Positions 10,826 to 41,867 are shown, counted from the first letter of the stretch. The stretch is 64,000 nucleotides of DNA from an uncultured Candidatus Saccharibacteria bacterium (GCA_964404925.1 CAYOLW010000003.1:575-64574), one strand, 5' to 3'. Notes: generated by a model from the sequence alone, not told the origin. A program made the numbers and translations.

Positions 10826-11470
10826 TTATATTTCAAAATTTTTAAGTTCCTCTATATACGGTGCGGCAGTAGCATCATTTATGTCTTCTGGTTTAATGTT
10901 ACATTTAGCAAATATTTGGTTTTCTATTTCTTTACCACAATCTACCAAATGCTGACGCTCCAAGTTGTCAAAGCCGCTTCTGCCAGCATACCGCCTGCGG
11001 GCTTCTTCCATACGTTCTTCATACGAAACAATTCCAAAAGGGTTCACTCGCATATCAGCATGATGCATTATTTTTAGCAGCACATCATCGGATGCTGCGT
11101 GTTCACATAAAAGAGTGAAATGATTCTGATCAGCTAATGCCCCAATTTCTTCTGCTAATCCTAACTCCCGGATTATTTGTATGGTTGCATTATGTTCATT
11201 TTCACCATATTTTTCTCTATATTCACCCTGTACAGCTTGCCAATACTCCACCCCTTCTGGTTCAAACATATCTGGAAAAACATCAAACTTGAATTTGAGT
11301 ATATTACCCATATCATGCAGTAGGCATACGGTGACTATTTTATTTTTATCAATCGTATCTCCCTGCCAATTATCACAAATCATCGCTGCTACTGCTGCAA
11401 CCCGCAGCATGTGCATTTGCAGTGTAGGTGGGATTTTATAATTTTTATATATTTCAGAAATCGTCCGCAT
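10826..11470 (-). CDS. HD-domain phosphohydrolase
   Basis: HMLRVAA...LLHDMGN (H...HD motif) and a later H..D pair. 214 aa. Confidence 0.6.
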   Translation of the reverse strand: MRTISEIYKNYKIPPTLQMHMLRVAAVAAMICDNWQGDTIDKNKIVTVCLLHDMGNILKFKFDVFPDMFEPEGVEYWQAVQGEYREKYGENEHNATIQIIRELGLAEEIGALADQNHFTLLCEHAASDDVLLKIMHHADMRVNPFGIVSYEERMEEARRRYAGRSGFDNLERQHLVDCGKEIENQIFAKCNIKPEDINDATAAPYIEELKNFEI

Positions 11471-14400
11471 TATTTTTCAATCTTAATTTTAAATACTAGA
11501 TTTTCTACTTTAATCTCAACACCATCATTAGGGACGAAGGACAGGTCTTTGGCACCAACTGTCTTTACAAAATCATCTTTGAATTTTTCTACTAATTCCT
11601 TTCCGGTGTTATCTGTTTCAATCAACAGACTAACCATATCACTTGGTAATAGATTCATTTGTTTACGGATGTCTTGCACAGCGCGAACCAATTCTCGATA
11701 GTCCCCTTCTTGTTTTAATTCAGGAGTTATTTCTGTATCTATTTTAATTTCTCCAGCCTTCACTTCTTTTACATTCAATTCATCTTTTATAATTTCTATA
11801 TATGAAGCAGCTGGTAACTCAGGCATAAAGAAAGCGGCCAGAGGTTGCCTAACTGGCAAGTTATTTACTTGTCTTTCTTTCATTCCAAGCGAAATGAACT
11901 CTCGAACTTTCTGCATTTCCGCTGTGTCAAAGGCACCCTTTGGTATTTGTGGCCAATTAGACAAATGCACACTCTCTGCGTCACCATCTACTTTCAACTT
12001 CTGCCACACATCTTCGGCGGCAAATGGTGCAAATGGTGCAAGTAGTTTTGCAATATTCTTTAGTACGAAATACAACGTTGCTTTAGCATTAACATCACCT
12101 TCCTTTATTCGATCTCGTGAACGACGCAGATACCAAGTAGACAAATCGCCCATGAATTCGCGCATGGCACGGACTGGCTCAAGCACCTTGTACTCATCCA
12201 TGTTCTTAGTGGTAAGTTCTGTTAGTTCAGCAAGTTTTGCCAATATCCACTGATCAAGCACATTCGCTTCCCCGAGATTGGACCTCAAAGACCCCAGAGG
12301 TCCAACCTCTGCATCCTTTTCTAAATTTTTATCTCTGTACAATTCATAGAAGGCCAGCACATTATAGTAGAGTCCAAAAACTTGGCGATTTAAATCAAGT
12401 ACAGTCTTCTCATCAAAATTCTTAGACTCACCTGGTTGATTAACTGAATACATCCACAGACGCAGAGTATCAACTCCGTATTTTTCAATCATACTCCATG
12501 GGTCAACGATGTTACCTAATGATTTAGACATTTTCTTACCCTTGGCATCGAGCAAGTGACCAAGGCAGATAACATTGCGGTATGCTTTTCCGCGACCCAT
12601 TAGTACACCCACAGCATGTAGCGTGTAGAACCACCCTCGGGTCTGATCGATAGCTTCAGAAATGTAATCAGCTGGGTAGCCAGGACCATCGACGAAATCC
12701 TTGTTTTCAAATGGATAATGATCCTGAGCAAAAGGCATCGCACCCGAGTCGAACCACACATCCATCACTTCTTTAGTGCGATGAAATTCTTCTCCATCTT
12801 TTTCCAAAACAACCTCATCGATATATGGTCGATGGAAATCAAGTTCATAATCTTCATTATGTGGTATTGGTGCAAAATCAAGATCTCGGCATTCTGCATT
12901 TTTAAATCTTTCAAAACCTTTGATAAACACACCCCTGTCTTGATCGGGTACATAGTCATGGCTATTCGGCGTATGTATACCAGAGGCAACAAAGAAAAGC
13001 CAAGCTGTGCCACCATGGGTCACAAATAATATATTTTTATTTTTATATTTTTCTTCTATTTCATACAGTGCTGCGCCTACTCGCTTTAACACATCAGCGA
13101 ATGATTCCCCGCCTGGTATTTTATGTGTAAACCAGTTCGCACCAACGCTCGAAACATAATCATGATAATCACGCCAACTTTTACCATCAAGTTCCCCTGG
13201 GTTAATCTCACCCAAACGCGGGTCTTCTACGACTTGGTCTTGAGACAATCCTAATCTATCACGTAATATTTCGGTTGTTTCTAAGGTGCGAGTAAATGGT
13301 GAAGTTATAATAAGGTCTATTTTTTTATCAGCTAGACTCTCCGCTGTCTTGGCTACATCTGCGCGTCCTGTTTCGGTGAGGTTGTCTTCTGCTTGTTTAC
13401 TGTAGCTCACGAGTCCGCTTTGATTACCCTCGGTGCCGCCGTGGCGCATGACGAAATATTTGTTTCCAGATTTCTTGGTATATTTTTTTAGAGTGTCGAG
13501 TGAATCAACCACAATCTTTTTACCATCACTGGCAAGCCACACCGGCAGGGGTGTTCCCCAATACCTTTCACGTGATATAGCCCAGTCCTTCACTCCATCA
13601 ATCCATTCACCAAATCTTCCCTCGCGAATATGAGACGGCTCCCAGTTAATGGTTTTATTTTCTTCGATAAGTTTCTTTTTTATTTCTGGATCGGTCATAC
13701 GCACATACCAAGAATCGCGTGCGTAGTATATAAGCGCAGTCTTGCAACGCCAACAGTGCGGATATGAGTGCTCATATAGTTCTTTATTGAAATACAGATT
13801 ATTCTCCTGCAAATATTTTATGATATCTACATCAAGAGTTGGTTTACCTTCTTCATTTTTTTCTTTTACAAATCTGCCTTCGAGGAATCCAGTACCCGGG
13901 ATAAATTTACCTTCAAGGTTCACAAGGTGGTGTTTAGGTAGTCCAACCTCGGTGCCGAGAACAAAGTCATCCTGACCGTACATCACCGCCGTATGCACTA
14001 TACCAGTACCATCTTCGGTGGTAACAAAATCAGCTGCATATACTTTGTACGCCCTGCTTTCTAACTTTTCTTTTTCAGTATCTGAAATAGTATCCGCCAT
14101 GTATGGAAAAAGTGGTTCGTATTCAAGACCAACAAGGTCTGAGCCTTTAAATTCAGATAATATTTCATAACCATCCCCTAATATAGACAGCCGAGCTTTT
14201 GCTAAAATTAAACTCTCCGGCTCTTTGAGGTCGGACCTCAAAGATTCCCCGAGGTCCGACCTCTGCCCGCCGGCAATCCTAACTTTTACATAATCAATAT
14301 CCTTTCCCAATGCTAATGCCACGTTGCCAGGCAATGTCCACGGAGTAGTAGTCCAGGCAAGAATATAAGTATTTTCTTGTCCTTTAACTTTAAACTTCAC

Positions 14401-15021
14401 ATACAAAGACAAATCTTTTACATCTTCATACCCTTGAGCAAGCTCGTGTGAAGAAAGCGCAGTCCCGCAGCGAGGACACCAGGGTACAACCTTATAATCC
14501 TTATACAGCAAATTCTGATCGTCTATTCTTTTAACCACACTCCAGAGTGATTCAATATAGCTATTATGATATGTCACATATGGATGCTTCTGGTCTACCC
14601 AGTATCCAATGCGTTCGGTAAATTTGTTCCACTGGTCGAGATACATCCATACGTTTTCTTTACACTCTTTGTTGAATTGAGCTACTCCGTACTCCTCGAT
14701 CATTTTCTTGGAGTTTAATCCGAGCTTTTTCTCTACTTGCAATTCCACCGGTAATCCGTGTGTATCCCATCCGCCTTTACGACGAACATGGAATCCCTGC
14801 ATAGTTTTGTAGCGAGGAATGACGTCTTTGAATGCACGCGCTTCGAGGTGGTGAATGCCAGGGTTACCGTTAGCTGTTGGTGGACCTTCATAAAAGACAA
14901 ACTCTTTACCAGAATTTGCTCGCTCGTCCATCGACTTTTGGAAAATATTATTTTCTTTCCAAAATTCTAATACCATCTCCTCGTTTTGTGCATATGCACT
15001 TTTTTTTATTTCCTCGCTCAT
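11470..15021 (-). CDS. ileS: isoleucyl-tRNA synthetase (type-2/eukaryote-like) carrying an internal histidine-phosphatase-like insertion
   Basis: PPTANGNPGIHH (HIGH), WTTTPWTLPGN (CP1 editing), WGTPLPVW, DVWFDSG, KMSKSLGN (KMSKS). 1183 aa. The insertion is described in the findings. Confidence 0.95.
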   Translation of the reverse strand: MSEEIKKSAYAQNEEMVLEFWKENNIFQKSMDERANSGKEFVFYEGPPTANGNPGIHHLEARAFKDVIPRYKTMQGFHVRRKGGWDTHGLPVELQVEKKLGLNSKKMIEEYGVAQFNKECKENVWMYLDQWNKFTERIGYWVDQKHPYVTYHNSYIESLWSVVKRIDDQNLLYKDYKVVPWCPRCGTALSSHELAQGYEDVKDLSLYVKFKVKGQENTYILAWTTTPWTLPGNVALALGKDIDYVKVRIAGGQRSDLGESLRSDLKEPESLILAKARLSILGDGYEILSEFKGSDLVGLEYEPLFPYMADTISDTEKEKLESRAYKVYAADFVTTEDGTGIVHTAVMYGQDDFVLGTEVGLPKHHLVNLEGKFIPGTGFLEGRFVKEKNEEGKPTLDVDIIKYLQENNLYFNKELYEHSYPHCWRCKTALIYYARDSWYVRMTDPEIKKKLIEENKTINWEPSHIREGRFGEWIDGVKDWAISRERYWGTPLPVWLASDGKKIVVDSLDTLKKYTKKSGNKYFVMRHGGTEGNQSGLVSYSKQAEDNLTETGRADVAKTAESLADKKIDLIITSPFTRTLETTEILRDRLGLSQDQVVEDPRLGEINPGELDGKSWRDYHDYVSSVGANWFTHKIPGGESFADVLKRVGAALYEIEEKYKNKNILFVTHGGTAWLFFVASGIHTPNSHDYVPDQDRGVFIKGFERFKNAECRDLDFAPIPHNEDYELDFHRPYIDEVVLEKDGEEFHRTKEVMDVWFDSGAMPFAQDHYPFENKDFVDGPGYPADYISEAIDQTRGWFYTLHAVGVLMGRGKAYRNVICLGHLLDAKGKKMSKSLGNIVDPWSMIEKYGVDTLRLWMYSVNQPGESKNFDEKTVLDLNRQVFGLYYNVLAFYELYRDKNLEKDAEVGPLGSLRSNLGEANVLDQWILAKLAELTELTTKNMDEYKVLEPVRAMREFMGDLSTWYLRRSRDRIKEGDVNAKATLYFVLKNIAKLLAPFAPFAAEDVWQKLKVDGDAESVHLSNWPQIPKGAFDTAEMQKVREFISLGMKERQVNNLPVRQPLAAFFMPELPAASYIEIIKDELNVKEVKAGEIKIDTEITPELKQEGDYRELVRAVQDIRKQMNLLPSDMVSLLIETDNTGKELVEKFKDDFVKTVGAKDLSFVPNDGVEIKVENLVFKIKIEK
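12273..12308. repeat. in-frame palindromic mini-element inside ileS (gagattggacctc-aaagacccca-gaggtccaacctc)
   Basis: 13-nt arms that are reverse complements with one mismatch around a 10-nt spacer. Reads through in-frame as ...GSLRSNLGEA.... Confidence 0.6.
14225..14261. repeat. in-frame palindromic mini-element inside ileS (gaggtcggacctc-aaagattcccc-gaggtccgacctc)
   Basis: Perfect 13-nt inverted repeat around an 11-nt spacer. Shares the ggacctcaaaga core with the 12273 copy. Encodes ...SDLGESLRSDLKEP.... Confidence 0.65.
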
Positions 15022-20459: not shown

Positions 20460-21647
20460 TTATTTAGAACGCAAAACTTTATCAATCTTTTTGGCAATTG
20501 TGATCATATCTTTTTCCTTTTTATTTCGAGTTGTTTCTGCACAAGTACCTAATCGGATACCAGATGGGTCCATAGGCCCACGAGGGTCACCCGGAATAGT
20601 ATTCATATTTACTATTATCCCCGCCTTCTCAAGCTTCTCACTAGCAATTTTGCCTGGCACTCCAACACCGTTCATCCATGTGTCCATTAGTAAGAGGTGT
20701 GAATCTGTACCACCGGATACAATACGCCAACCAAGCTTTTGTAATTCACTGGATAAAGCTTTTGCATTTTTTACAACTTGTTTTGCATACTTTTTAAAAG
20801 CAGGGGTAGATGCTTCTTTAAGTGCCACAGCCACAGCAGCAATTGTGTTCTCGTGTGGTCCGCCAAACAGTCCGGGTATTACAGCTTTGTCTAATTTTTT
20901 ATCAAATTCTCTACTGTCTTTTTTTACAAAAAGTAGTGCATGCCGTGGACCACGGAGAGATTTGTGAGTAGTGGTCATAACAGAGTCTGCATACGGAAAT
21001 GGTGATGGATATTCTAGACCAGCTACCAACCCCGCAAAGTGTGACATGTCTACATGCAATATTGCCCCACATGCGTCTGCAATCTCGCGAAACTTTTTAA
21101 AATTAACAATACGAGGATATGCAGTAAACCCAGCAACGATTAACTTTGGTTTTTCGGCTATGGCCAATTGCTTCAATGCTTCGTAATCAATTTCTTCGTT
21201 CTCAACAGTTATTTCAAACTGGGCAGAATTCCATAGTTTACCAGTCAGTGATGCAGGGTATCCGTGAGTTAGATGTCCACCGGAAGAAAGCTTCATCCCC
21301 ATTATTTTCTCCCCAATTGGCACGAGCGCAGTATATAAAGCAAAGTTCGCCGGGGAGCCAGAAAGCAACTGTACATTCACATGCCAATCCCCCTCCTTCA
21401 ATTTAAAAAGTTTTAAAGCTCGATCAATACACAGAGTCTCTACCTGGTCTATTATTTTATTACCCCCATAGTATCTCCTACCTGGATAACCCTCGGCATA
21501 TTTGTTAGTAAGTTCACTACCTAATGCAGCTAGTACGTCTTTGGAAACATAGTTCTCTGAAGCTATTAAATTAATAACACTTTTCTGCCGTGTCGCCTCT
21601 CCTTTAATTAGTTTTTCTATTTGTTTATCTTTCATTTTTGCTTGCAT
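20460..21647 (-). CDS. glyA: serine hydroxymethyltransferase
   Basis: INLIASENY, YAEGYPGRRYYGG, TTTHKSLRGPR (PLP-Lys region). 395 aa. Confidence 0.9.
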   Translation of the reverse strand: MQAKMKDKQIEKLIKGEATRQKSVINLIASENYVSKDVLAALGSELTNKYAEGYPGRRYYGGNKIIDQVETLCIDRALKLFKLKEGDWHVNVQLLSGSPANFALYTALVPIGEKIMGMKLSSGGHLTHGYPASLTGKLWNSAQFEITVENEEIDYEALKQLAIAEKPKLIVAGFTAYPRIVNFKKFREIADACGAILHVDMSHFAGLVAGLEYPSPFPYADSVMTTTHKSLRGPRHALLFVKKDSREFDKKLDKAVIPGLFGGPHENTIAAVAVALKEASTPAFKKYAKQVVKNAKALSSELQKLGWRIVSGGTDSHLLLMDTWMNGVGVPGKIASEKLEKAGIIVNMNTIPGDPRGPMDPSGIRLGTCAETTRNKKEKDMITIAKKIDKVLRSK

Positions 21648-22495
21648 GCACCCATTGTATCACAGTTAAGTACTATGGTTCCAAGCAGGTCTGTACGGAA
21701 TATTTGAACACCCAATTTGGCTAATGTATCCAGTGTTTCCTTATGCGGATGTCCATATTTATTGGATTTACCACTAGAAATCAAAGAATATTTAGGCCTC
21801 ACAGCATTCACAAATTCTGGTGAAGTAGAAGTATTTGACCCATGGTGTCCAACTTTTAGAATCATACTTTGCAAATTGTTTGGATGGGTTTGAGACAATA
21901 CTAACCTCTCAGTGTACTTTGTCGCATCACCGGTGAGCATGATTTTGGTATCACCGTATACAAGTCTCGCCACCACTGAACCATCGTTCGGCGACCAGTC
22001 CGTAACATCCCGATCCGGAAACAAAAATTCTATATACGCCCCACCACCTATATCTACACTCATTCCCTTGCGAACGAGAATATCCGGAATGTTTTTATTT
22101 TTAATAAAAGATTCTAAGTTTTTATAAGTAGAAGAAGGATTAATTGTGCCTGATTCAAAAACAGTATTTATTTTGTACATTTTCAAGACATCTAAAAACC
22201 CAGAGATGTGGTCTGCATCGGGGTTGGTTATAACCACCGCATCAATAGTACGATCCCAAAACGGCATTACTTTAGGAAGTTCACGCAATATTGTATTTCC
22301 CGGACCTGCATCAAAAAGTATCTGAGTACCCGATGGGGATTCTATAAAAATCGCATCTCCCTGCCCTATATCAAGGGCAGCAATAGTGATTTCTTTATTT
22401 TGAGAATTGAAATCAACGTATATTAAGCAGGCAACCAGCATGAAGAGAAAAGCTGCAAAATAGAATAGCAAAAAGTCTTTATGCTTAAACTGCAT
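21632..22495 (-). CDS. metallo-beta-lactamase-fold protein, ComEC C-terminal (nuclease) domain homologue with one N-terminal TM helix
   Basis: LDIGQGDAIFIE...ITNPDADHISG (HxHxDH-like), later GDA and HHGS motifs of the MBL fold. TM anchor FLLFYFAAFLFMLVACLIYV. Confidence 0.7.
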   Translation of the reverse strand: MQFKHKDFLLFYFAAFLFMLVACLIYVDFNSQNKEITIAALDIGQGDAIFIESPSGTQILFDAGPGNTILRELPKVMPFWDRTIDAVVITNPDADHISGFLDVLKMYKINTVFESGTINPSSTYKNLESFIKNKNIPDILVRKGMSVDIGGGAYIEFLFPDRDVTDWSPNDGSVVARLVYGDTKIMLTGDATKYTERLVLSQTHPNNLQSMILKVGHHGSNTSTSPEFVNAVRPKYSLISSGKSNKYGHPHKETLDTLAKLGVQIFRTDLLGTIVLNCDTMGACKQK

Positions 22496-22497
22496 GA

Positions 22498-22503
22498 TAT
22501 AAT
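22498..22503 (+). promoter_or_regulatory. candidate -10 box (TATAAT) 9 nt upstream of the sodA start codon; implies a leaderless or very short-leader transcript
   Basis: A perfect TATAAT lies in the 17-bp divergent spacer between the MBL gene and sodA. No Shine-Dalgarno would fit. Confidence 0.3.
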
Positions 22504-22512
22504 GTTAGCATT

Positions 22513-23130
22513 ATGCAAAACTTCACACAAAAAACATTTAACCTGCCTACCGGACAGGCAGGCATTAATGAGCTTTCAGGTATATCAGCTCAAAACATTG
22601 AGGAACATTTAAAACTGTACGCTGGATATGTTAAAAACGCGAACTTTATTCAAGAAAAAGTAGCCGAACTCATGCACGATGCAGATAATAATGCATACAT
22701 ATTAGGAGAACTTGAGCGCCGGTTTTCTTTTGAATTCAATGGCATGCGCAATCATGAATACTACTTTACCTCACTCGAAGGCGGACCAAGCACTCTCGCA
22801 AACGACTCAAAATTAAAGCAAAAAATTGAAACACAGTTTGGAACATTTGATGCATGGCTCGACGGATATAAAAGGCTAGCCATGACTCGCGGAGTCGGCT
22901 GGGCAATGCTGTACTATGATAAACACACAGACAAATTAGTCCATGCATGGGTAGACGAGCAACATCTAGGCCAGCTCAATGGCTGCCAAGTAATCCTCGC
23001 CCTCGACATGTGGGAACACGCTTATGTGTACGACTACCCTACTAGTGAAAAAAAGAAGTATGTAGAAACTTTCTTTCAAAATTTGAATTGGAATATTATA
23101 GAAAATAACTTCCTAGAAGCCACAAAATAA
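22513..23130 (+). CDS. sodA: Fe/Mn superoxide dismutase
   Basis: HH.KHH-type N-terminal region, DMWEHAYY signature. 205 aa. Confidence 0.9.
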   Translation: MQNFTQKTFNLPTGQAGINELSGISAQNIEEHLKLYAGYVKNANFIQEKVAELMHDADNNAYILGELERRFSFEFNGMRNHEYYFTSLEGGPSTLANDSKLKQKIETQFGTFDAWLDGYKRLAMTRGVGWAMLYYDKHTDKLVHAWVDEQHLGQLNGCQVILALDMWEHAYVYDYPTSEKKKYVETFFQNLNWNIIENNFLEATK

Positions 23131-23133
23131 AAA

Positions 23134-23166
23134 ACGGGTTATGCTTGTATTGCAAAGCATAACCCG
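23134..23166. terminator. bidirectional terminator between convergent sodA and aconitase
   Basis: acgggttatgctt...aagcataacccgt: 13-bp stem flanked by A-run and T-rich run. Confidence 0.6.
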
Positions 23167-23193
23167 TGTGTCACTGTTTTAAACAAAAAATCC

Positions 23194-25458
23194 TTACTTT
23201 ACGTTGAGAGCAGAACCGGCACGTAGCCATTCAATTTGGCTTGCGTTATAGGTGTTTACTAATTTAATTATCTCGTACATACCATCTGCATGATCAAGGC
23301 GCAGATAAATCGGTATGTCTGGCATTAAAGTTTCAAAACCTATCAAACTCACTTTGTCATCCTGTCTAATTTCGTCATAGTCGCTAGGATCATCGAAAGT
23401 GAAAGCAAAAATACCTTGCTTCTTCAGGTTGGTCAGGTGTATGCGAGCAAATGATTTCGCAACTACCACCTTCACTCCCATATAGCGCGGCTCCATAGCA
23501 GCATGTTCACGACTACTTCCCTCACCCAGGTTTTCTTCGGCAAAAACAATTGTGCCGATACTATTATCTTGGTAAATTGAAGCACTTTCGTGAACTGTCC
23601 TATAATCCCCAGTGACAGCATTCCATACATTATTCTTTTCACCGTTGAAAAAGTTTTCCGCTCCCATATACAAGTTGCGGGAAATATTTGCAAGGTGTCC
23701 CCGGTATTTTAACCATGGACCGGCCATAGAAATGTGGTCTGTGGTGCATTTACCTTTGGCTTTAATCAATACATGCATGTCTGTGAGATCAGCAGCCGTA
23801 ATAGGCTTGAACGGTTCAAGTAACTGCAATCTTTCTGAAGCCAAATCAACAAACACATCAACCTTTGAACCATCTTTTGCAGGTGCAATGTAACCACGTT
23901 CACCCACATCAAATCCATCATCAGGTAATTCAATTCCTTCTGGTGCACTAAAGCAACGCCAATTGCCATCAATGAAAAATTCAAGAGTTCCCTGCTGGTG
24001 ATCATACTTGAATTTAGACAAATCACCCGCTAAAGCAAAGGCTGTCACTATTTCAGGGCTGGCTACAAATGCATGTGTCTTTGGATTACCATCATTACGC
24101 GAAGTAAAGTTTCGATTGAAACTTGTCATTATTGAATTTGGACGTTCTTTATCATCAATATGCCGCGACCATTGTCCAATACACGGGCCGCAAGCATTGG
24201 ACAGCACTACGCCGCCAATTTTTTCAAAATCACGCAATATGCCATCTCGTTCGGCCGTATACCGAATCTGTTCAGAACCCGGGGTAACAGTGAACTCAGA
24301 GATAAAACTCAATCCTTTTTCATGCGCCTGCCAGACTACATCTACCGCTCGGGTCAAATCTTCGTATGAAGAGTTGGTGCATGATCCGATAAGCCCCACT
24401 TCCAATTTTACTGGCCAGTTATTTTCTTCAACTGCAGCGGCAAATTTCGAAAGTGGCCAAGCCAAATCTGGTGTGAACGGACCATTAATGTGAGGCTCAA
24501 GTTCAGAAAGATTTATTTCAATTACCTGATCAAAGTATTGTTCTGGGTTTGCATAACATTCGGAATCTCCATTTAGGTACGGAACTAAACCTTTGCATAT
24601 ATTGGCAACTTTCTCACGACCAGTGGCTCGCAGATAACGGTCCATACTTTTGTCATACCCAAAGGTAGATGTTGTGGCACCAATCTCTGCACCCATATTG
24701 CATATTGTGGCTTTACCAGTTGCACTGATATTGTGTACGCCAGATCCGAAATATTCCACAATACAATCCGTGCCACCTTTGACGGTCAGAATGCCTGCCA
24801 AATGCAAAATTACATCTTTCGGCGAAGTCCAACCATGAAGTTTACCGGTAAGTTTTACCCCAATCAATTTAGGCATTTGTAATTCCCATGGCATTGCAGT
24901 CATGACATCCACCGCGTCAGCACCACCAACACCAATAGCAATCATGCCAAGGCCGCCAGCGTTAACTGTGTGCGAGTCTGTTCCGATCATCATACCACCA
25001 GGGAAGGCGTAATTTTCTAATACAATCTGGTGAATAATACCAGATCCAGGTTTCCAGAATCCGATGCCATATTTTTGTGATACAGATTGCAAGAAATCAA
25101 ATACTTCCTTGTTTTTGTTCAAAGCATTTGGTAAATCTTCAGTGGCTCCTTTTTCTGCCTGAATCAGGTGATCGCAGTGAACCGTGCTGGGCACAGCCAC
25201 CTTTTTACGGCCGCAGGTCATGAATTGCAATAGCGCCATTTGCGCTGTTGCATCTTGCATGGCCACACGGTCAGGTGAAAAAAACACGTAATCCCTTCCA
25301 CGCTGGTAATCAGTGACCGAGTTATCGGGATGCAAATGGGCGTAGAGGATTTTTTCAGTAAGGGTCAGAGGTCGCTTGAGTTGTTTTTTTGCGGCATCTA
25401 CACGAGTCTGAAAAGTCGAATAGAATCCTTTGATCATTTTAATGTCGAACATAATCAA
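23194..25458 (-). CDS. acn: aconitate hydratase, mitochondrial-type (Aco2/AcnA-like monomeric)
   Basis: [14 protein letters not shown]...[18 protein letters not shown]...[13 protein letters not shown], Fe-S ligating Cys regions ([22 protein letters not shown]), C-terminal swivel domain. 754 aa matches the mitochondrial-type size. Confidence 0.85.
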
Positions 25459-25538
25459 TGAGTTGAAATTAGAAATGAAAAGAAAGCGTTATGCGTCCAG
25501 GCCACGCCGCTTTCTAGGGTCAATGCCTGTTAATCTTT

Positions 25539-26711
25539 TTATACTTCAATCAAGTATTCTGAGCGTTCTGCTACATACTGAATCATTCTTTCTGTGTCAC
25601 GCTCTGCTGAATCTGTATCATTAAGATAGTCCAGGGTTGCAGCACGAACAAAACCAAAAAAGTCTTTTTGTTCAGGATTAACTTGCTCAAAAGCACTACA
25701 CATAGCAAAGATGATTCCTGCAGGATTCAAAAACTTGTCACCGTAAAGAGGCCCTACTGTTTTACCGTCGGCAGTACCACCTGGCAACTCCTCATAGGTA
25801 AACCAACCTTCGTCCGACATGCAGTACACAGTGCTTCCCATTACACGATTTCCGTGTTGAATATCAACAATGTCGGAAGCAGTGTCGCCATTCGGGTTGT
25901 CGCAGACCATAAGGAATCCACCTTTTGCATAAACACTTTCTCCATCACCATTTTGAATAGGTAATGAAGCCAAAGCGATATCAGTAAGTTCGTGATGCCA
26001 CGTGTCATCACTCCATAAATCTTTGGCAGTGATTTCCGTTAAACCAAGTTCACGCCAAACATTTTCGATCGTTTCGCGAAAGGTAAGTTCAGACTTAGCA
26101 ATTGTGCTTTTACTAGCCAATACAAGGTGTAAACCTTTTTCCTGAGCAATTTTATAAGCAAGCCGGGCAAATTCTTCGAGCTTAGTCAGGTTCATTCTCT
26201 GGGTAATAATCAAGTTTTTCTCATTACCAGATTGAACATCTGCACTAAGTTCCTCATAAAATCCTCCGCTAGCGAAACGCAAGACACCGCAAGGGTTTTG
26301 ATAACGCCCAGGGCCCTGCAAAAAACGCAGCATTGCAAAAGCATTCGCCAGAGGCCTCATTGCGATATTTGCACTTTTCCAACCTTTGGCTTTGATTAGC
26401 GGGTCATTTGAAGCGGTCGAATTTTTGAAACCTGCGCCACATTTACGGAGGGCAGCAACGGCTGAGGTAATGCAATCATCGTTGGTTTCGAGTCGAGCGG
26501 CAACAGACATAGGCACATCTACAGTCGGAAAACTTTTAAAAATAATTTCCCGAACCATCTGTGCACCACGTGCAACGCCACCGTCACCGTTGAGGAATGC
26601 GATTGGTTTGAGTTCTTTTTTCATAATCGTTAAAGTTGAGTGAATGAAAAATGAGTTTCGTAAGGATTTCAAAGAGCAAAGGAGTCTTTTAAAAATCCTT
26701 AATCTGGACAT
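25539..26711 (-). CDS. icd: NADP-dependent isocitrate dehydrogenase, eukaryote-like subfamily II (possibly with a shortened clasp region); likely true start at 26624 (MKKELKP...)
   Basis: Collinear similarity to IDH1/2: NGDGGVARGAQMVREIIF (cf. [20 protein letters not shown]), TNDDCITSAVAALRK, WKSANIAMRP, EEFARLAYKIAQEKGLHLVLASKSTIAK, GGFLMVCDNPNGDTASD (cf. GGFIWACKNYDGDVQSD). Confidence 0.6.
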   Translation of the reverse strand: MSRLRIFKRLLCSLKSLRNSFFIHSTLTIMKKELKPIAFLNGDGGVARGAQMVREIIFKSFPTVDVPMSVAARLETNDDCITSAVAALRKCGAGFKNSTASNDPLIKAKGWKSANIAMRPLANAFAMLRFLQGPGRYQNPCGVLRFASGGFYEELSADVQSGNEKNLIITQRMNLTKLEEFARLAYKIAQEKGLHLVLASKSTIAKSELTFRETIENVWRELGLTEITAKDLWSDDTWHHELTDIALASLPIQNGDGESVYAKGGFLMVCDNPNGDTASDIVDIQHGNRVMGSTVYCMSDEGWFTYEELPGGTADGKTVGPLYGDKFLNPAGIIFAMCSAFEQVNPEQKDFFGFVRAATLDYLNDTDSAERDTERMIQYVAERSEYLIEV

Positions 26712-26747
26712 GATATTACAATAAAATCACAGAAAAACAAGGGACGT

Positions 26748-28082
26748 CTACCAAACTATTTCTTCTTCTTTTTTAAAAGAATTTTGAATATCTCTATAGA
26801 AAAGCCTATAAGCAAACCAGGTATAAATTAATATAACCAAAACAAGTGGAAACCGAGATATGGCAATAGAGGCAAATGGTAAAATCGCAAATTTTTCGAT
26901 AATAAAAAGCTCATAGGCAAGCAGCTGACCAGTAACATACCCAGGCACGACAGAAATAATTGGATAGATTATCCCAGCAAATCCAGTTATGAATCCAAGC
27001 AGCATAGTAATCGGTATTAAAGGCAGAACAAGGAAATTCGCCGGCAAGGCAACGAGTGACAGGTTCCCCATTTTATACAATATAAATGGTAGCATGAATA
27101 CATAGACAGTGGTGGTAACATTGATAATATCCCTAAGGCCGAATTTAGTTGGCACCCAGTAGAAATATTTGATAGTTTTTGGAGTTATATAAATCACGGC
27201 AAAGGTTGCAAGGAACGAAAACTGAAAAGATACATCGTATAGTAGTATCATTGGATTCCAAATAATCATTATTACTCCAGCGAGGACCAACCCTCGCCCG
27301 GCTTCATACATACGGCCTGTTTTACGTGCAACAAGTGCGAGCACTGCCATAATGCCCGCGCGTATACCAGTGGATGCACCACCAGTCATAATGATAAAAA
27401 ATAAAATTCCAAATATGCCGAAGTAAATACTAGACGCTCCAGTAAATGCAAATAAACTCATAATCCACTCTGCTACGATGGTGACGTTGTACCCAGAAAG
27501 TGCCACTATGTGTATTGTACCCGTACGAATAAAAGCATCATTTAATTCCTGTGAGAAATTAGACTTCTCCCCTAGTATGAGGCCAGCTAATAAATATGAT
27601 TCTGGAGGATTAATGGCGAAATTAATTTTATCTAAGAAAAAATTTTTAACTTTAAATAAATACTTCTTAATCCAGAATCCATGATTTTTAGAAATCACTT
27701 CTACTTTGGCGAAGCTTACAGTATAGAGGACGTTGTCTTTCTTTAAATAATTTATATAATCAAATTCTTTTCCCTGATCGGTGATGAAGTTTTCTGCTTT
27801 TTTGAGAGTACCTATAACCTCAACTTCATCCCCATATTCTATTCCGTTATTTACTGTAGTAACTAAAATATTAAATTCTTTTTCTGCTTTGATACTAACT
27901 AAAAACCGATTATTAGTGTTCCTAATACTCGGTGCGTCAGTAACTATACCAGATAATTTTACCTTTTCATCTACATGTGATTCAAAGGCTTGAGGCGGGG
28001 TGAGATCTAAAAAATAAAATCTAATCCCCCATACAGCAAGGCCAGCAACAAGAATAAATAATGTGCTATTGCGAAATTTCAT
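26748..28082 (-). CDS. comEC: ComEC/Rec2 N-terminal portion (DUF4131 + competence membrane-channel domain), no MBL domain
   Basis: N-terminal TM, OB-like soluble region (VKLSGIVTDAP...), LAGLILGEKSNFSQELNDAFIRTGTIHIVALSGYNVTIVA (competence domain signature), then multiple TM helices. Ends without the beta-lactamase domain. Confidence 0.7.
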   Translation of the reverse strand: MKFRNSTLFILVAGLAVWGIRFYFLDLTPPQAFESHVDEKVKLSGIVTDAPSIRNTNNRFLVSIKAEKEFNILVTTVNNGIEYGDEVEVIGTLKKAENFITDQGKEFDYINYLKKDNVLYTVSFAKVEVISKNHGFWIKKYLFKVKNFFLDKINFAINPPESYLLAGLILGEKSNFSQELNDAFIRTGTIHIVALSGYNVTIVAEWIMSLFAFTGASSIYFGIFGILFFIIMTGGASTGIRAGIMAVLALVARKTGRMYEAGRGLVLAGVIMIIWNPMILLYDVSFQFSFLATFAVIYITPKTIKYFYWVPTKFGLRDIINVTTTVYVFMLPFILYKMGNLSLVALPANFLVLPLIPITMLLGFITGFAGIIYPIISVVPGYVTGQLLAYELFIIEKFAILPFASIAISRFPLVLVILIYTWFAYRLFYRDIQNSFKKEEEIVW

Positions 28083-38891: not shown

Positions 38892-40109
38892 TTAAATACT
38901 GTCTAGAACACTGTAAAGTGGTGTAATCATTGAGATAGCAAAAAAACCAACAGCTGCACCAATAAAAACCATGAGTATTGGTTCAATGACAGTCGATAGA
39001 TTTTTTGTTTTGTTTTCTATTTCAGTTTCATAATATGTAGCTATTTGAACAAGCATCTCAGATAATTTACCTGTTTCTTCACCAACTTGAATCATTTCAG
39101 ACATCATTATCGGGTACAGTTTAACATTTTCTTCAAAAACTTTAGAAAAAGGTGCACCTTTTTCTACCTGGTCACGAGATTCAGTAAGGACCCTTTTATA
39201 GTATATATTTTGTACCACGTCTCGGGTTATTTCTATAGCTCTAGTGATAGCCACACCTGATACTAAAAGCGAGGCTAATGTTCGGGCTGTTCGAGCGGTA
39301 TTTAATTCTTTAGCAATATTGCCAACTATAGGGATTCTAATAACGATATAATCTAAATAAGGCTTCATGAATGAAGCACGCAATAAAAAAACGACACTTA
39401 CGATTAAAAAAACAACAACCCCAAATGCCAGAATTGGACTCTGTGAAACAAAATTAGCTATATTGATTACAAATTGAGTTGAAGCGGGTAATTTGGCATT
39501 AAGTTCATCGAAGGTTTTAGCTAAAGTTGGTACAACAAAAATAAACATAAGGACACCAATAATCAACATAGCAGACATAATAACACCAGGATAAATCAAT
39601 GCTCCTTTTACTTTTTTTGTTAGAGCATTTGCCTTGTCTAAATTTTGACCAACTTCATTTAGAGACTCAGCCAAATTACCAGATTCCTCCCCTGCTCTAG
39701 CCATGGATATAAACAAAGGTGAAAAAACTTTTGGATATTTAGCAAGACCAGATGATAGAGTGCCTCCAGCATTTATTTCAGCCGACAAAGAAACTAATAT
39801 GTCATTTAACTTTTTATTTTTTGTTTGTTTTTGAAGAACAGAGAGGGCCCGAGACAAAGACAGTCCAGCCTTGATCATCCCACTTAAGTTCTTGGTCATA
39901 AGAACCAAATCTCCTGTTTTTACACTACCGAATATATTACCAAAGTTAGCCAAAAACTTATCCATACCTGCCTTGTGTTTTATTTCTATAGAAATAGGAA
40001 TATTACCACGAGAATGGAGTTCTCTGGAAACAGAAAATTTATCAAGTGATTCGATCTCGCCTGAAATTATTTCCCCTGTTTTTAGTTTTGCTTTATATGT
40101 AAATAACAT
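38892..40109 (-). CDS. pilC: type IV pilus platform protein PilC (GspF family)
   Basis: 405 aa, two T2SSF-type repeats with 3 TM segments. Directly downstream of the PilB ATPase. Confidence 0.85.
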   Translation of the reverse strand: MLFTYKAKLKTGEIISGEIESLDKFSVSRELHSRGNIPISIEIKHKAGMDKFLANFGNIFGSVKTGDLVLMTKNLSGMIKAGLSLSRALSVLQKQTKNKKLNDILVSLSAEINAGGTLSSGLAKYPKVFSPLFISMARAGEESGNLAESLNEVGQNLDKANALTKKVKGALIYPGVIMSAMLIIGVLMFIFVVPTLAKTFDELNAKLPASTQFVINIANFVSQSPILAFGVVVFLIVSVVFLLRASFMKPYLDYIVIRIPIVGNIAKELNTARTARTLASLLVSGVAITRAIEITRDVVQNIYYKRVLTESRDQVEKGAPFSKVFEENVKLYPIMMSEMIQVGEETGKLSEMLVQIATYYETEIENKTKNLSTVIEPILMVFIGAAVGFFAISMITPLYSVLDSI

Positions 40110-40118
40110 TTTATTCTT

Positions 40119-41867
40119 TTATTCTGAAACAACTCTGAATACTTCCTCTATAGTAGTATTACCTAAAACACATTGAAATATACCATCCTCAATCATAGTC
40201 ATCATTCCTTCTTTTTTAGCTTGCACTTCTATATCATCCTGAGAAGCACCTTTACTGATAAGTTCACGAATAGTCGTGCTGACTTTTAACACTTCATGAA
40301 TACCAACACGACTATGATAACCATCTTCTGATTCATCATTCTTTACTGCTTTAAAGAAAGGAACTTTTTCCCAAGTAGTTTTTTCATCAATAAGTTTTTC
40401 TTTTTTCAAAAAAGACATCATACGGTCTAAATCTACTAGTTTGCTCAGATTTTTTATCTCAGCTGGAGATAAAAAATACTGTTCTTTAATTTTTGTTAAT
40501 CGACGAACCAATCGCTGCGCAATAATCGTCTTTACAGTCGAAACAATCAAAAAAGGTAGTACACCCATATCTATCATTCTAGGTATTGCGCCTGCAGCAG
40601 AATTAGTGTGGATAGTGGACAAAACTAAGTGTCCAGTCAAAGATGCATTCACTGCTAAACTAGCCGTCTCTGTGTCTCGTATTTCACCAACCATGATTAT
40701 GTCGGGATCTTGACGTAGTAGACTACGCAGACCATTAGCAAAAGTTAATCCAATTTCAGGCTTTACTTGAGTTTGATTGACGCGTGGCATTTGATATTCA
40801 ACAGGGTCTTCAACTGTTGAAATATTTACGTCTGGTTTATTAAGGATCTCAAGCATAGTATATAAAGTCGTAGTTTTACCACTACCAGTAGGTCCAGTTG
40901 CCAAAATCATTCCTGTTTTTTGTCGCATGGATTCATATATCCTTTCTAGACCTTCACCATGAAAACCAAGCCCTTCAAGTGAAAAACCTCCCCCTCCCTC
41001 ATGCAAAATACGCATTACGGTCTTCTCTCCAAAAAAGGTTGGCAACGTTGAAACACGGAATGAAACCTTATCACCGTTTTGATCAATTTTGAAACGACCA
41101 TCTTGTGGTAAACGCTTCTCATCAAGTTTAAGGTTAGAAAGTACTTTAATACGGGCAGTAATACCTGAGGAAGCAGATTTATCTAGTATCATTGCTTCAT
41201 GTAACAAACCATCAATACGGTATCTAACAATTAGATCATGTTCTCCCGGTTCAATGTGAATGTCAGAAGCATTTTGCAAAATTGCGTGAAAAATAAGAGA
41301 ATCAACTATTTTGACCACCGGCAAATCTTCAGCCATTTTTTTTAACTCTTCTTCAGATTTTTCTCCCACATCCTCTTTTGAGATAGATAGCGATGCAACT
41401 TCTTTTTGTATTAAATTATCGAATTCTGCCTGTAGGCTACGCTTGTATTGCAAAAGGGAAGATTTTATTGAAGCAACATCAGTTAACCTTGGTAATATCC
41501 TAAGCTCAGATTTCTTTTTCACGAAATCTATAACAGACAAATTATCAACGTCGAGCATTGCAACTTCTAGTCCTTTGTCACTTTTTTTATAAGCAATAAT
41601 ATTGTATTTACGAGCTAATGGTTCCGGAATTAGAGACAGTATATTGAAATCAATTTTTTCGTTTACTAAGCTAACATATGGAATACCCAACACAAAAGCC
41701 TCCATTCTTTTTAAATCGTTTTCAGAAATTTTACCTTCAGACAAAAGAAGGTCAGTGAACTTTTCTTTTTTCTCGGCAGCTTTTTTACCAAGCTGGTCTA
41801 AAACATCACCATTTACCAAACCAGCATCGAGTATATATTTTTTTAGTTGTTCTTCGTTAACTTGCAC
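40119..41867 (-). CDS. pilB: type IV pilus assembly ATPase PilB (GspE family)
   Basis: N-terminal GSPII_E_N-like domain, Walker A GPTGSGKTTTLY, Asp box, Walker B/His box (VGEIRD...), no tetracysteine at the end. 582 aa. Confidence 0.9.
   Translation of the reverse strand: MQVNEEQLKKYILDAGLVNGDVLDQLGKKAAEKKEKFTDLLLSEGKISENDLKRMEAFVLGIPYVSLVNEKIDFNILSLIPEPLARKYNIIAYKKSDKGLEVAMLDVDNLSVIDFVKKKSELRILPRLTDVASIKSSLLQYKRSLQAEFDNLIQKEVASLSISKEDVGEKSEEELKKMAEDLPVVKIVDSLIFHAILQNASDIHIEPGEHDLIVRYRIDGLLHEAMILDKSASSGITARIKVLSNLKLDEKRLPQDGRFKIDQNGDKVSFRVSTLPTFFGEKTVMRILHEGGGGFSLEGLGFHGEGLERIYESMRQKTGMILATGPTGSGKTTTLYTMLEILNKPDVNISTVEDPVEYQMPRVNQTQVKPEIGLTFANGLRSLLRQDPDIIMVGEIRDTETASLAVNASLTGHLVLSTIHTNSAAGAIPRMIDMGVLPFLIVSTVKTIIAQRLVRRLTKIKEQYFLSPAEIKNLSKLVDLDRMMSFLKKEKLIDEKTTWEKVPFFKAVKNDESEDGYHSRVGIHEVLKVSTTIRELISKGASQDDIEVQAKKEGMMTMIEDGIFQCVLGNTTIEEVFRVVSE

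Follow-up and report, generated by a model that had tools for sequence, protein, structure and literature searches.

Bacteria of the Candidate Phyla Radiation (CPR) are thought to lack a tricarboxylic acid (TCA) cycle and to live off a host. The question raised by the locus considered here is how a genome of this kind comes to carry, side by side, genes for two consecutive steps of that cycle, and whether these genes share one history with their neighbours. The locus lies in a stretch of 64,000 nucleotides from an uncultured Candidatus Saccharibacteria bacterium (GCA_964404925.1 CAYOLW010000003.1:575-64574), the whole of which is referred to as the window. A preliminary description had singled out positions 22513-26711, holding genes for an Fe/Mn-type superoxide dismutase (SOD; sod), an aconitase (acn) and a protein resembling isocitrate dehydrogenase (IDH; idh-like), as a GC-rich block that was likely acquired horizontally and lies between the two halves of comEC. 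All three open reading frames (ORFs) are present there, the true starts of acn and the idh-like gene being probably at 25452 and 26624. The block as then defined is not a unit. The locus is instead probably an accessory, mosaic two-gene operon that would turn citrate into 2-oxoglutarate by way of isocitrate and reduce NAD(P)+, assembled within the CPR and inserted in the gap between comEC and sod.

Comparison with close relatives separates the two enzyme genes from their surroundings. The four closest ComEC homologues (78-86% identity) lie on contigs with the same backbone as the window (L021 to L024). On three of these (L021, L023, and L024; ComEC 78-83%), the gene order is RecJ-RNase H-ComEC-sod (convergent)-MBL-SHMT-CYTH, where MBL stands for a gene of the metallo-beta-lactamase fold and SHMT for serine hydroxymethyltransferase, and the gap between comEC and sod is empty; in L023 (4483-4493) and L024 (2534-2544) the 3' ends of the two genes even overlap by 11 bp. 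In blastn comparisons homology breaks off exactly at the stop codons of comEC (26748) and sod (23130-23133), and the variable segment between them (23131-26747, 3617 bp) consists of a leader, the idh-like gene, a spacer, acn, and a terminator. In tetranucleotide usage, a check that had been proposed at the outset, this segment is the most deviant of 101 sliding windows (rank 1, z 3.5). Because comEC abuts sod in three relatives, the breakpoints coincide with stop codons and the segment is a tetranucleotide outlier, the two-gene operon is taken to be accessory. No repeat or tRNA was seen at the borders of the insert, which are simply the two stop codons, and no integrase-like ORF is present among the adjoining genes (RecJ, RNase H, ComEC, SOD, MBL, and SHMT).

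Base composition is less striking than had been supposed. A GC content of 45-48% had been read by eye; the values are 43.2% for acn and 42.7% for the idh-like gene, a mild rise over the ORF mean of 37.7% (sd 3.0), with sod at 40.3%. At third codon positions (GC3) the three genes have 0.36-0.40, the same as neighbouring housekeeping genes, and the excess is in codon positions 1 and 2. Together with the tetranucleotide signal, these figures point to a foreign but largely ameliorated segment.

The superoxide dismutase gene is not part of this segment. Its orthologues (63-84% identity) occupy the same position in all four relatives, three of which have neither acn nor an idh-like gene, so that sod is a native backbone gene lying outside the insert. 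The protein matches the C-terminal domain model well (Sod_Fe_C, 79 bits against 20.9) and falls just below the cut-off for the N-terminal one (Sod_Fe_N, 24.6 against 27); its best match in the PDB is the Aquifex Fe-SOD 1coj, and the metal ligands H32, H81, D165, and H169 are kept. At 205 aa the window SOD is about seven residues longer at its C-terminus than the 198-aa proteins of L023 and L024, and DNA homology with the relatives starts about 18 bp inside the 3' end of the window gene. The preliminary description had linked sod to protection of the superoxide-labile aconitase; since the cassette merely happened to land beside it, this proximity is incidental. The other contig found with an adjacent idh-like and acn pair in the same order (L008, described below) has a third ORF, which on checking was not a SOD.

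Nor did the insertion interrupt comEC. All 120 best ComEC homologues, retrieved in a joint search with both ComEC parts, are 434-503 aa long and comprise DUF4131 and Competence domains without the MBL domain; those that are named belong to Paceibacterota, Paceibacteria, and Nomurabacteria. The model for full-length ComEC/Rec2 (TIGR00361, cut-off 190) gives the two parts in the window 71.6 and 123.4 bits. As none of the 120 nearest homologues has an MBL domain, a split comEC is the norm of this lineage. It is therefore literally true that the block sits between the two halves of comEC, but it did not divide them, and sod is found there without acn and the idh-like gene too. These observations bear directly on the original proposal, in which sod, acn and a eukaryote-type gene for NADP-dependent IDH arrived at once as a Bacteroides-style operon with a protective SOD, splitting comEC on arrival. 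The type of the aconitase (Bacteroidota/mitochondrial), the contiguity of the three genes between the ComEC channel and MBL genes, and a GC content slightly up across all three are in keeping with such an event. The proposal is contradicted by the sod orthologues of the relatives and runs against the uniform lack of an MBL domain in the nearest ComEC homologues; moreover, the idh-like protein has only about 20% identity to type II IDHs, and its clade is found in CPR, DPANN, and predatory bacteria. Acquisition as a single block is accordingly most improbable.

The second gene of the operon encodes an aconitase that is, by its sequence, unambiguously of the mitochondrial/Bacteroidota type, as had been proposed. 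It is a single chain of about 754 aa with Aconitase and Aconitase_C domains, passes TIGR01340 with 1056.4 bits (cut-off 825.35) over model positions 1-744 of 745, and matches the bovine mitochondrial enzyme (1ACO) at 919 bits and 58% identity. The three Cys ligands of the [4Fe-4S] cluster and the catalytic His, Asp, Ser, and Arg residues align with those of 1ACO, the motifs NRNFTxRND and GEGSSREH are kept, and the predicted activity is the interconversion of citrate and isocitrate. Among 5.8 billion proteins searched, the best non-self matches have 74% identity, and all named matches come from Bacteroidota (Chitinophagales, Saprospiraceae, and Lewinellaceae). One further match (P0102, 71% identity) lies on a 4.2-kb JGI contig (L008), where acn directly follows an idh-like homologue at a distance of 80 bp, just as it does in the window.

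A neighbour-joining (NJ) tree of these aconitases, rooted on the bovine enzyme, joins the window and L008 proteins as sisters in 87 of 100 bootstraps. Both have terminal branches of about 0.18, compared with well under 0.1 for most others, and the Bacteroidota sequences in the tree have a median mutual identity of 87%. When either of the pair is removed singly, the one that remains attaches at the same node, as sister to a clade of 112 sequences with all named Bacteroidota aconitases. The tree fits a single acquisition of a Bacteroidota-type gene followed by accelerated evolution. With this affinity, and with the slot empty in three relatives, the aconitase was very probably acquired horizontally, so that the suggested foreign origin is supported for this gene and not for sod.

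As only Bacteroidota appear among the named sequences closest to the aconitase, the thought arises that a fragment of a Bacteroidota genome was misjoined to a CPR contig during assembly or binning. The aconitase is, however, 26% diverged from every Bacteroidota sequence in the database of 5.8 billion proteins; CPR genes lie on both sides of it within a single contig that is collinear at the DNA level with relatives; and the pair recurs with a homologous spacer on the independent contig L008. An artefact of this kind can be set aside as having almost no chance of being correct. Greater weight is due to the view that the cassette was ancestral in this group of Paceibacteria and was deleted in L021, L023, and L024, the likeness of the aconitase to Bacteroidota enzymes being due to reverse transfer or slow evolution. 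Gene loss is common in reduced genomes, GC3 in the insert is host-like, and the two closest genomes (the window and L022) are both filled and share leader, spacer, and terminator. Yet it is two CPR aconitases on long branches that stand beside a large, tight Bacteroidota clade, and not the reverse; the 11-bp overlap of comEC and sod in L023 and L024 is a compact arrangement rather than a deletion scar; the empty slot of L021 holds no leader or terminator remnants; and the insert is the strongest tetranucleotide outlier of the window. Ancestry followed by loss is thus unlikely, and insertion into an empty gap is the reading followed below.

The first gene of the operon encodes a protein of 361 aa that is far less easily placed. 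Pfam Iso_dh (PF00180) was barely passed (35.0 bits against a gathering threshold of 27), while the equivalog models of NADP-dependent IDH failed (TIGR00127, 35.1 against 397 bits; PRK08299, 39.3 against 335 bits), and the solved structure closest by sequence, that of the Desulfotalea IDH, scores 52 bits. A type II fold is nonetheless indicated by an AlphaFold2 (AF2) model built on the family alignment (pLDDT 95.5), the top 50 Foldseek matches of which in the PDB are all type II IDHs (TM-score 0.73-0.80, 17-21% identity), and in a profile alignment the protein is collinear from end to end with IDH1 and bacterial type II IDHs. The proposed assignment to IDH subfamily II, as an IDH1/2-like enzyme, therefore survives as a remote relationship, but without the model scores, the sequence identity, or the NADP determinants that such a protein would have.

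The residues expected of an enzyme acting on isocitrate are kept. Equivalents of IDH1 S94, N96, R100, R109, R132, Y139, K212, D252, D275, and D279 are invariant in 45 of 45 family members, and the position of T77 is Ser in 44 and Thr in one. With T77, this set covers the isocitrate-binding, metal-binding, and Tyr/Lys catalytic residues, S94 and N96 lying within the WKSxN motif that recognizes the gamma-carboxylate. Two other regions have changed. The clasp, which in PtIDH1 is built of two two-stranded antiparallel sheets per subunit and spans about 44 residues (PMC7460673), occupies about 40 residues in type II IDHs by the profile alignment, while that of the idh-like protein is a single beta-hairpin of about 18-20; between a small-domain strand and helix 146-163, the AF2 model shows no more than strands 125-132 and 136-142. 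In the cofactor loop, where type II IDHs have EAAHGTVTRH, the window protein has ELPGGTAD-G-K. Equivalents are thereby missing for R314 and H315 of IDH1, the NADP determinants (2'-phosphate) of type II IDHs, which NAD-dependent members replace by Asp/Met or Asp/Leu (PMC7460673). The loop reads T-A-D-G-K in the window, AD[GK][KM] in the CPR subclade, and APGR[KR] in the other subclade. Because the subclade of the window protein has an Asp in this loop and lacks R314 and H315, NAD+ appears more likely than NADP+ as the cofactor, and NADPH, named earlier as the product, is unsupported.

It might be argued that the protein is some other beta-decarboxylating dehydrogenase, acting on homoisocitrate, isopropylmalate, or tartrate/D-malate, or that it is not catalytic at all, and that its adjacency to an aconitase is incidental. 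Very low scores against IDH models, the short clasp, the changed cofactor loop, and the lack of a nearby aconitase for most family members speak in its favour. The invariance just described, however, extends to the isocitrate-recognizing, catalytic, and metal-binding residues alike; aconitase genes of two types accompany the gene in separate lineages; and in L022 the same expression scaffold holds a canonical IDH. An identity other than IDH is improbable on this evidence. Both steps from citrate to 2-oxoglutarate are hence represented in the operon by recognizable genes with conserved catalytic residues, as the preliminary description had it.

Relatives of the idh-like protein are few. A word-indexed search of the 5.8 billion proteins returned only 46 (38-62% identity; full-length members 325-408 aa), and an exhaustive profile search of 1.84 billion cluster representatives returned 19 at E < 1e-30. 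The clade is set off by a gap in score, full-length members reaching at least 337 bits and all else at most 115, with canonical IDHs at about 80. A scan of one genome per species yielded 12 loci, with taxon labels as deposited for the metagenome-assembled genomes (MAGs): within the CPR, Nomurabacteria, two Paceibacterota, Saccharibacteria, and Wolfebacteria; beyond it, a Nanoarchaeia MAG, two Micavibrio, two other alphaproteobacterial MAGs, a 'Rickettsiales' MAG (1.04-Mb contig), and a Bdellovibrionales MAG. All carriers come from host-dependent or predatory lineages with small genomes. An NJ tree puts the window protein within a CPR subclade; the stem of the family is long, and a few other short IDH-like sequences form its sister group. 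The protein belongs to a rare, short clade of its own and is not the NADP enzyme of eukaryote/Bacteroides type that had been proposed, nor did it arrive with the aconitase as a Bacteroides-style acn-icd operon. A profile search of IMG/VR viral contigs brought up no relatives and so gives no sign of phage carriage. Full-text literature searches found no aconitase/IDH module in CPR/Patescibacteria and no description of this IDH clade, an absence that is no proof that the clade is undescribed.

In most loci the idh-like gene stands alone amid unrelated housekeeping genes, with an ordinary terminator after it. An adjacent aconitase gene is found in three loci: the window, L008, and a Wolfebacteria MAG (NVRX02000004.1; L020, 7295-11050), where an AcnA-type aconitase (833 aa, 760 bits) is encoded next to the idh-like gene in divergent orientation. 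Pairing with two different types of aconitase argues for isocitrate as the substrate. Across 26 loci no neighbour of the idh-like gene recurs between lineages, and synteny is confined to the Micavibrio-like group (NhaA and genes like those of gene-transfer agents, GTAs). In this group (L013, 5762-9605; L014; L026 to L028) the gene lies directly downstream of NhaA, ahead of which come genes for a 3-TM GTA-type holin and a cell-wall hydrolase as well as a terminase-like gene, a GTA-like neighbourhood. In the 'Rickettsiales' MAG (L001/L012, 3301-15291), it follows nadA-nadB-nadC and a NifU-like gene and precedes a Na+/H+ exchanger and then an island with a phage-type integrase and a primase/D5 helicase. 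In the Nanoarchaeia MAG (JANQND010000021.1; L018, 9989-14712), purK/purE lie upstream and a gene with a Glu_synthase domain (500 aa) about 2 kb downstream; this could link 2-oxoglutarate to glutamate, a mere hint.

The closest relative of the window, L022 (ComEC 86% identical), has its comEC-sod slot filled differently. It holds a canonical type II NADP-dependent IDH of 404 aa (618 and 670 bits to TIGR00127 and PRK08299), with 22% identity to the idh-like protein of the window, followed by a 212-aa signal-peptide protein with no family match. Around these unrelated coding sequences the non-coding scaffold is 95-100% identical to that of the window, compared with only 75-85% for backbone coding DNA. 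The promoter-like region and leader (about 105 nt; window 26641-26747, L022 1615-1721) are about 96% identical and end some 17 nt before each start codon; the intercistronic element (window 25478-25539, L022 2952-3013) has 54 of 62 nt identical; and the terminator (23135-23167, L022 3713-3745) is 100% identical. This pattern looks like an exchange of coding modules inside a fixed expression scaffold, and we are aware of no published mechanism that would account for it. L022 comes from a Logan assembly at k=31, and its outer connections to comEC and sod might in principle be chimeras; the junctions further in, between scaffold and cargo, must exist in the reads.

The elements of the scaffold differ in how well they are defined. 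The terminator folds at -21.8 kcal/mol (z -4.7) and was not found in L021. The hairpin of the leader is weak (z -1.75), and the putative promoter upstream of the idh-like gene was read by eye, a consensus promoter scan having missed it. The intercistronic hairpin recurs in L008 between the idh-like gene and acn, diverged and with compensatory changes in its inner stem, and was not found downstream of stand-alone idh-like genes, for which reason it is assigned to the idh-like-acn operon; in L022 the same hairpin separates two unrelated genes. The window has one copy each of leader and hairpin. An Rfam search of 22000-27200 at E up to 1 gave two sub-threshold chance matches only and no family for either element, and an exact 27-mer of the intercistronic hairpin had no match in JGI metagenomes. 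Two readings of the hairpins were dropped: an integron-like attC site, as the two elements share only the 7-mer GCATAAC and no integrase is present, and an aconitase-binding element of the iron-responsive kind, as the loop is not CAGUGN-like. To our knowledge, RNA binding is not known for mitochondrial-type aconitases.

The course of events that we favour may be put as follows. A 3.6-kb operon would have entered a Paceibacteria (CPR) genome at a neutral site, the gap towards which the comEC channel gene and sod converge. Its aconitase, which would descend from a Bacteroidota gene like those of Saprospiraceae/Chitinophagales and have evolved fast since transfer, is expected to isomerize citrate to isocitrate; its IDH-like enzyme, from a rare clade that appears to circulate among CPR and other small-genome, host-dependent or predatory lineages, would oxidatively decarboxylate isocitrate to 2-oxoglutarate and reduce NAD(P)+. 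Flux in this direction could supply 2-oxoglutarate and glutamate, together with reducing power, from host-derived citrate. That the two enzymes are functionally linked is argued by the repetition of their order on L008, the pairing with an AcnA-type enzyme in L020, and the canonical IDH in the slot of L022.

Several points weigh against this account. About 25 of about 28 distinct idh-like loci have no aconitase within 6-10 kb, which implies that the enzyme often works without an adjacent partner. The action of the IDH-like protein on isocitrate is predicted from its residues, and the alignment of the cofactor loop could be off by one residue. Both trees are NJ only, and six unnamed aconitases branch below the CPR pair; the CPR enzymes can therefore be placed only beside the Bacteroidota clade, strict nesting within it depending on the taxonomy of these six. 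Transfer was not recent, given the host-like GC3 of the insert. Finally, no citrate transporter, citrate synthase, glutamate dehydrogenase, glutamate synthase (GOGAT), or other consumer of 2-oxoglutarate is encoded among the scanned window ORFs, several large ORFs at 32.5-58.8 kb lying outside the scan.

If the account is correct, a CPR genome can add a minimal shunt from citrate to 2-oxoglutarate out of parts of different origin, and near relatives differ in whether they have it. A testable clue to the still unknown hosts of Paceibacteria would be the lineage that donated the aconitase. Standard IDH models miss the idh-like clade, so automated reconstructions of CPR, DPANN, and predatory bacteria would under-call IDH, and the short clasp and altered cofactor loop make the protein an attractive minimal IDH for biochemistry. 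Novelty is greatest in the cross-domain clade of 'mini-clasp' IDHs and in the conserved expression scaffold with different cargos. A broader synthesis can be offered tentatively, and we hold it to be possible rather than likely: that 'mini-clasp' IDHs form a subfamily with NAD- and NADP-type loop variants, spread horizontally across domains among CPR, DPANN, Micavibrio, Bdellovibrionales, and Rickettsiales-like lineages and drawing 2-oxoglutarate and reducing power from host citrate or isocitrate; that Paceibacteria keep a scaffold with exchangeable coding modules; and that the origin of the aconitase marks Saprospiraceae/Chitinophagales-like bacteria as physical partners.

Features of the locus and its flanks, with positions in the window
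Feature	Position	Strand	Basis or remark
sod, Fe/Mn-family superoxide dismutase	22513-23130	+	native backbone gene flanking the insert
acn, mitochondrial-type aconitate hydratase, second operon gene	23194-25452 (752 aa); ORF as first described 23194-25458	-	TIGR01340
idh-like, short divergent type II-like isocitrate dehydrogenase, first operon gene	25539-26624 (361 aa); ORF as first described 25539-26711	-	Pfam Iso_dh, fold
Putative promoter and 5' leader of about 80 nt with hairpin AAGGATTT..AAATCCTT	26625-26747	-	starts directly after comEC stop codon
Intercistronic element with hairpin 25482-25514	25478-25538	-	GAAAGCG..CGCTTTC, inner stem GCGT/ACGC, then TTTT
13-bp hairpin terminator between convergent acn and sod, right end of insert	23134-23167	.	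fold, L022 identity
comEC channel gene, DUF4131 + Competence, 444 aa, left flank of insert	26748-28082	-	domain scans
Separate ComEC-type MBL-fold gene, 287 aa, backbone	21632-22495	-	domain scans
SHMT gene	20460-21647	-	domain scans

The starts adopted in the table match public proteins, P0001 for the idh-like gene and P0047 for acn, whose start is most likely the ATG at 25452. The ATG at 26711 is an unlikely start for the idh-like gene because it lies inside the non-coding leader conserved in L022. Upstream of the comEC channel gene are those for RNase HI and RecJ. The start codons of the MBL-fold gene and sod stand back to back, 17 bp apart (22495-22513), so that each promoter must sit within the coding sequence of the other gene; similarly tight divergent spacing (14-17 bp) is seen in L021 to L024. 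ComEC matches at 78-80% identity labelled Paceibacterota/Paceibacteria provide evidence for the lineage of the window.

The other scanned ORFs of the window are of housekeeping character (aminoacyl-tRNA synthetases, PGK, TIM, NusA, trigger factor, and ClpP) or belong to a type IV pilus cluster, in which large ORFs without annotation also lie. An isoleucyl/class-I tRNA synthetase (11470-15021, minus strand; 1183 aa) has a His_Phos_1 domain at residues 523-676, in the middle of its catalytic domain, an unusual insertion. At 32511-58778 lie about 17 co-oriented ORFs on the minus strand, many of 450-990 aa, with GC3 of 0.18-0.26 and mostly a GC content at second codon positions of 0.39-0.51; three large ones that were tested had no Pfam match. 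PilB (T2SSE) and PilC (T2SSF) lie within this run, at 38892-41705. Its composition sets the run apart as a domain of its own, GC3 being 0.28-0.45 over the first 31 kb.

A mitochondrial-like aconitase is familiar from Bacteroides fragilis, where 21 papers cite it, and the Bacteroides-type oxidative TCA operon, in which aconitase and IDH are accompanied by citrate synthase, is among the closest known systems. The window pair resembles it in having adjacent, co-oriented genes for two consecutive steps and an aconitase of mitochondrial type. It differs in gene order (idh then acn), in drawing its IDH from a different clade, in being an insertion that is polymorphic among close relatives, and in the lack of a citrate synthase among the scanned window ORFs. 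The aconitase adds a member to a known family, in a host where none was expected: it is like the Bacteroidota and eukaryotic Aco2 enzymes in length, domains, passing of the model cut-off, cluster ligands, and catalytic residues, but has a branch about three times longer than its Bacteroidota relatives and is an accessory gene of a CPR genome, downstream of, and presumably co-transcribed with, a non-Bacteroidota IDH gene.

The IDH-like protein is a new, uncharacterized variant of type II IDH. Compared with human IDH1/IDH2, the enzymes of Thermotoga maritima (1ZOR) and Desulfotalea psychrophila (2UXQ), and the NAD-dependent enzymes of Ostreococcus tauri and Phaeodactylum, it is alike in fold and in substrate, metal, and catalytic residues, whereas its length (361 aa, theirs being about 400-415), mini clasp, changed cofactor loop, low identity, and membership of a discrete clade set it apart. 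As a site, the comEC-sod slot is comparable with accessory-gene hotspots and with non-orthologous displacement, being empty in three relatives and filled with the idh-like gene and acn here and with other cargo in L022; it differs from known hotspots in that a non-coding leader, hairpin, and terminator are retained at 95-100% identity around different cargo.

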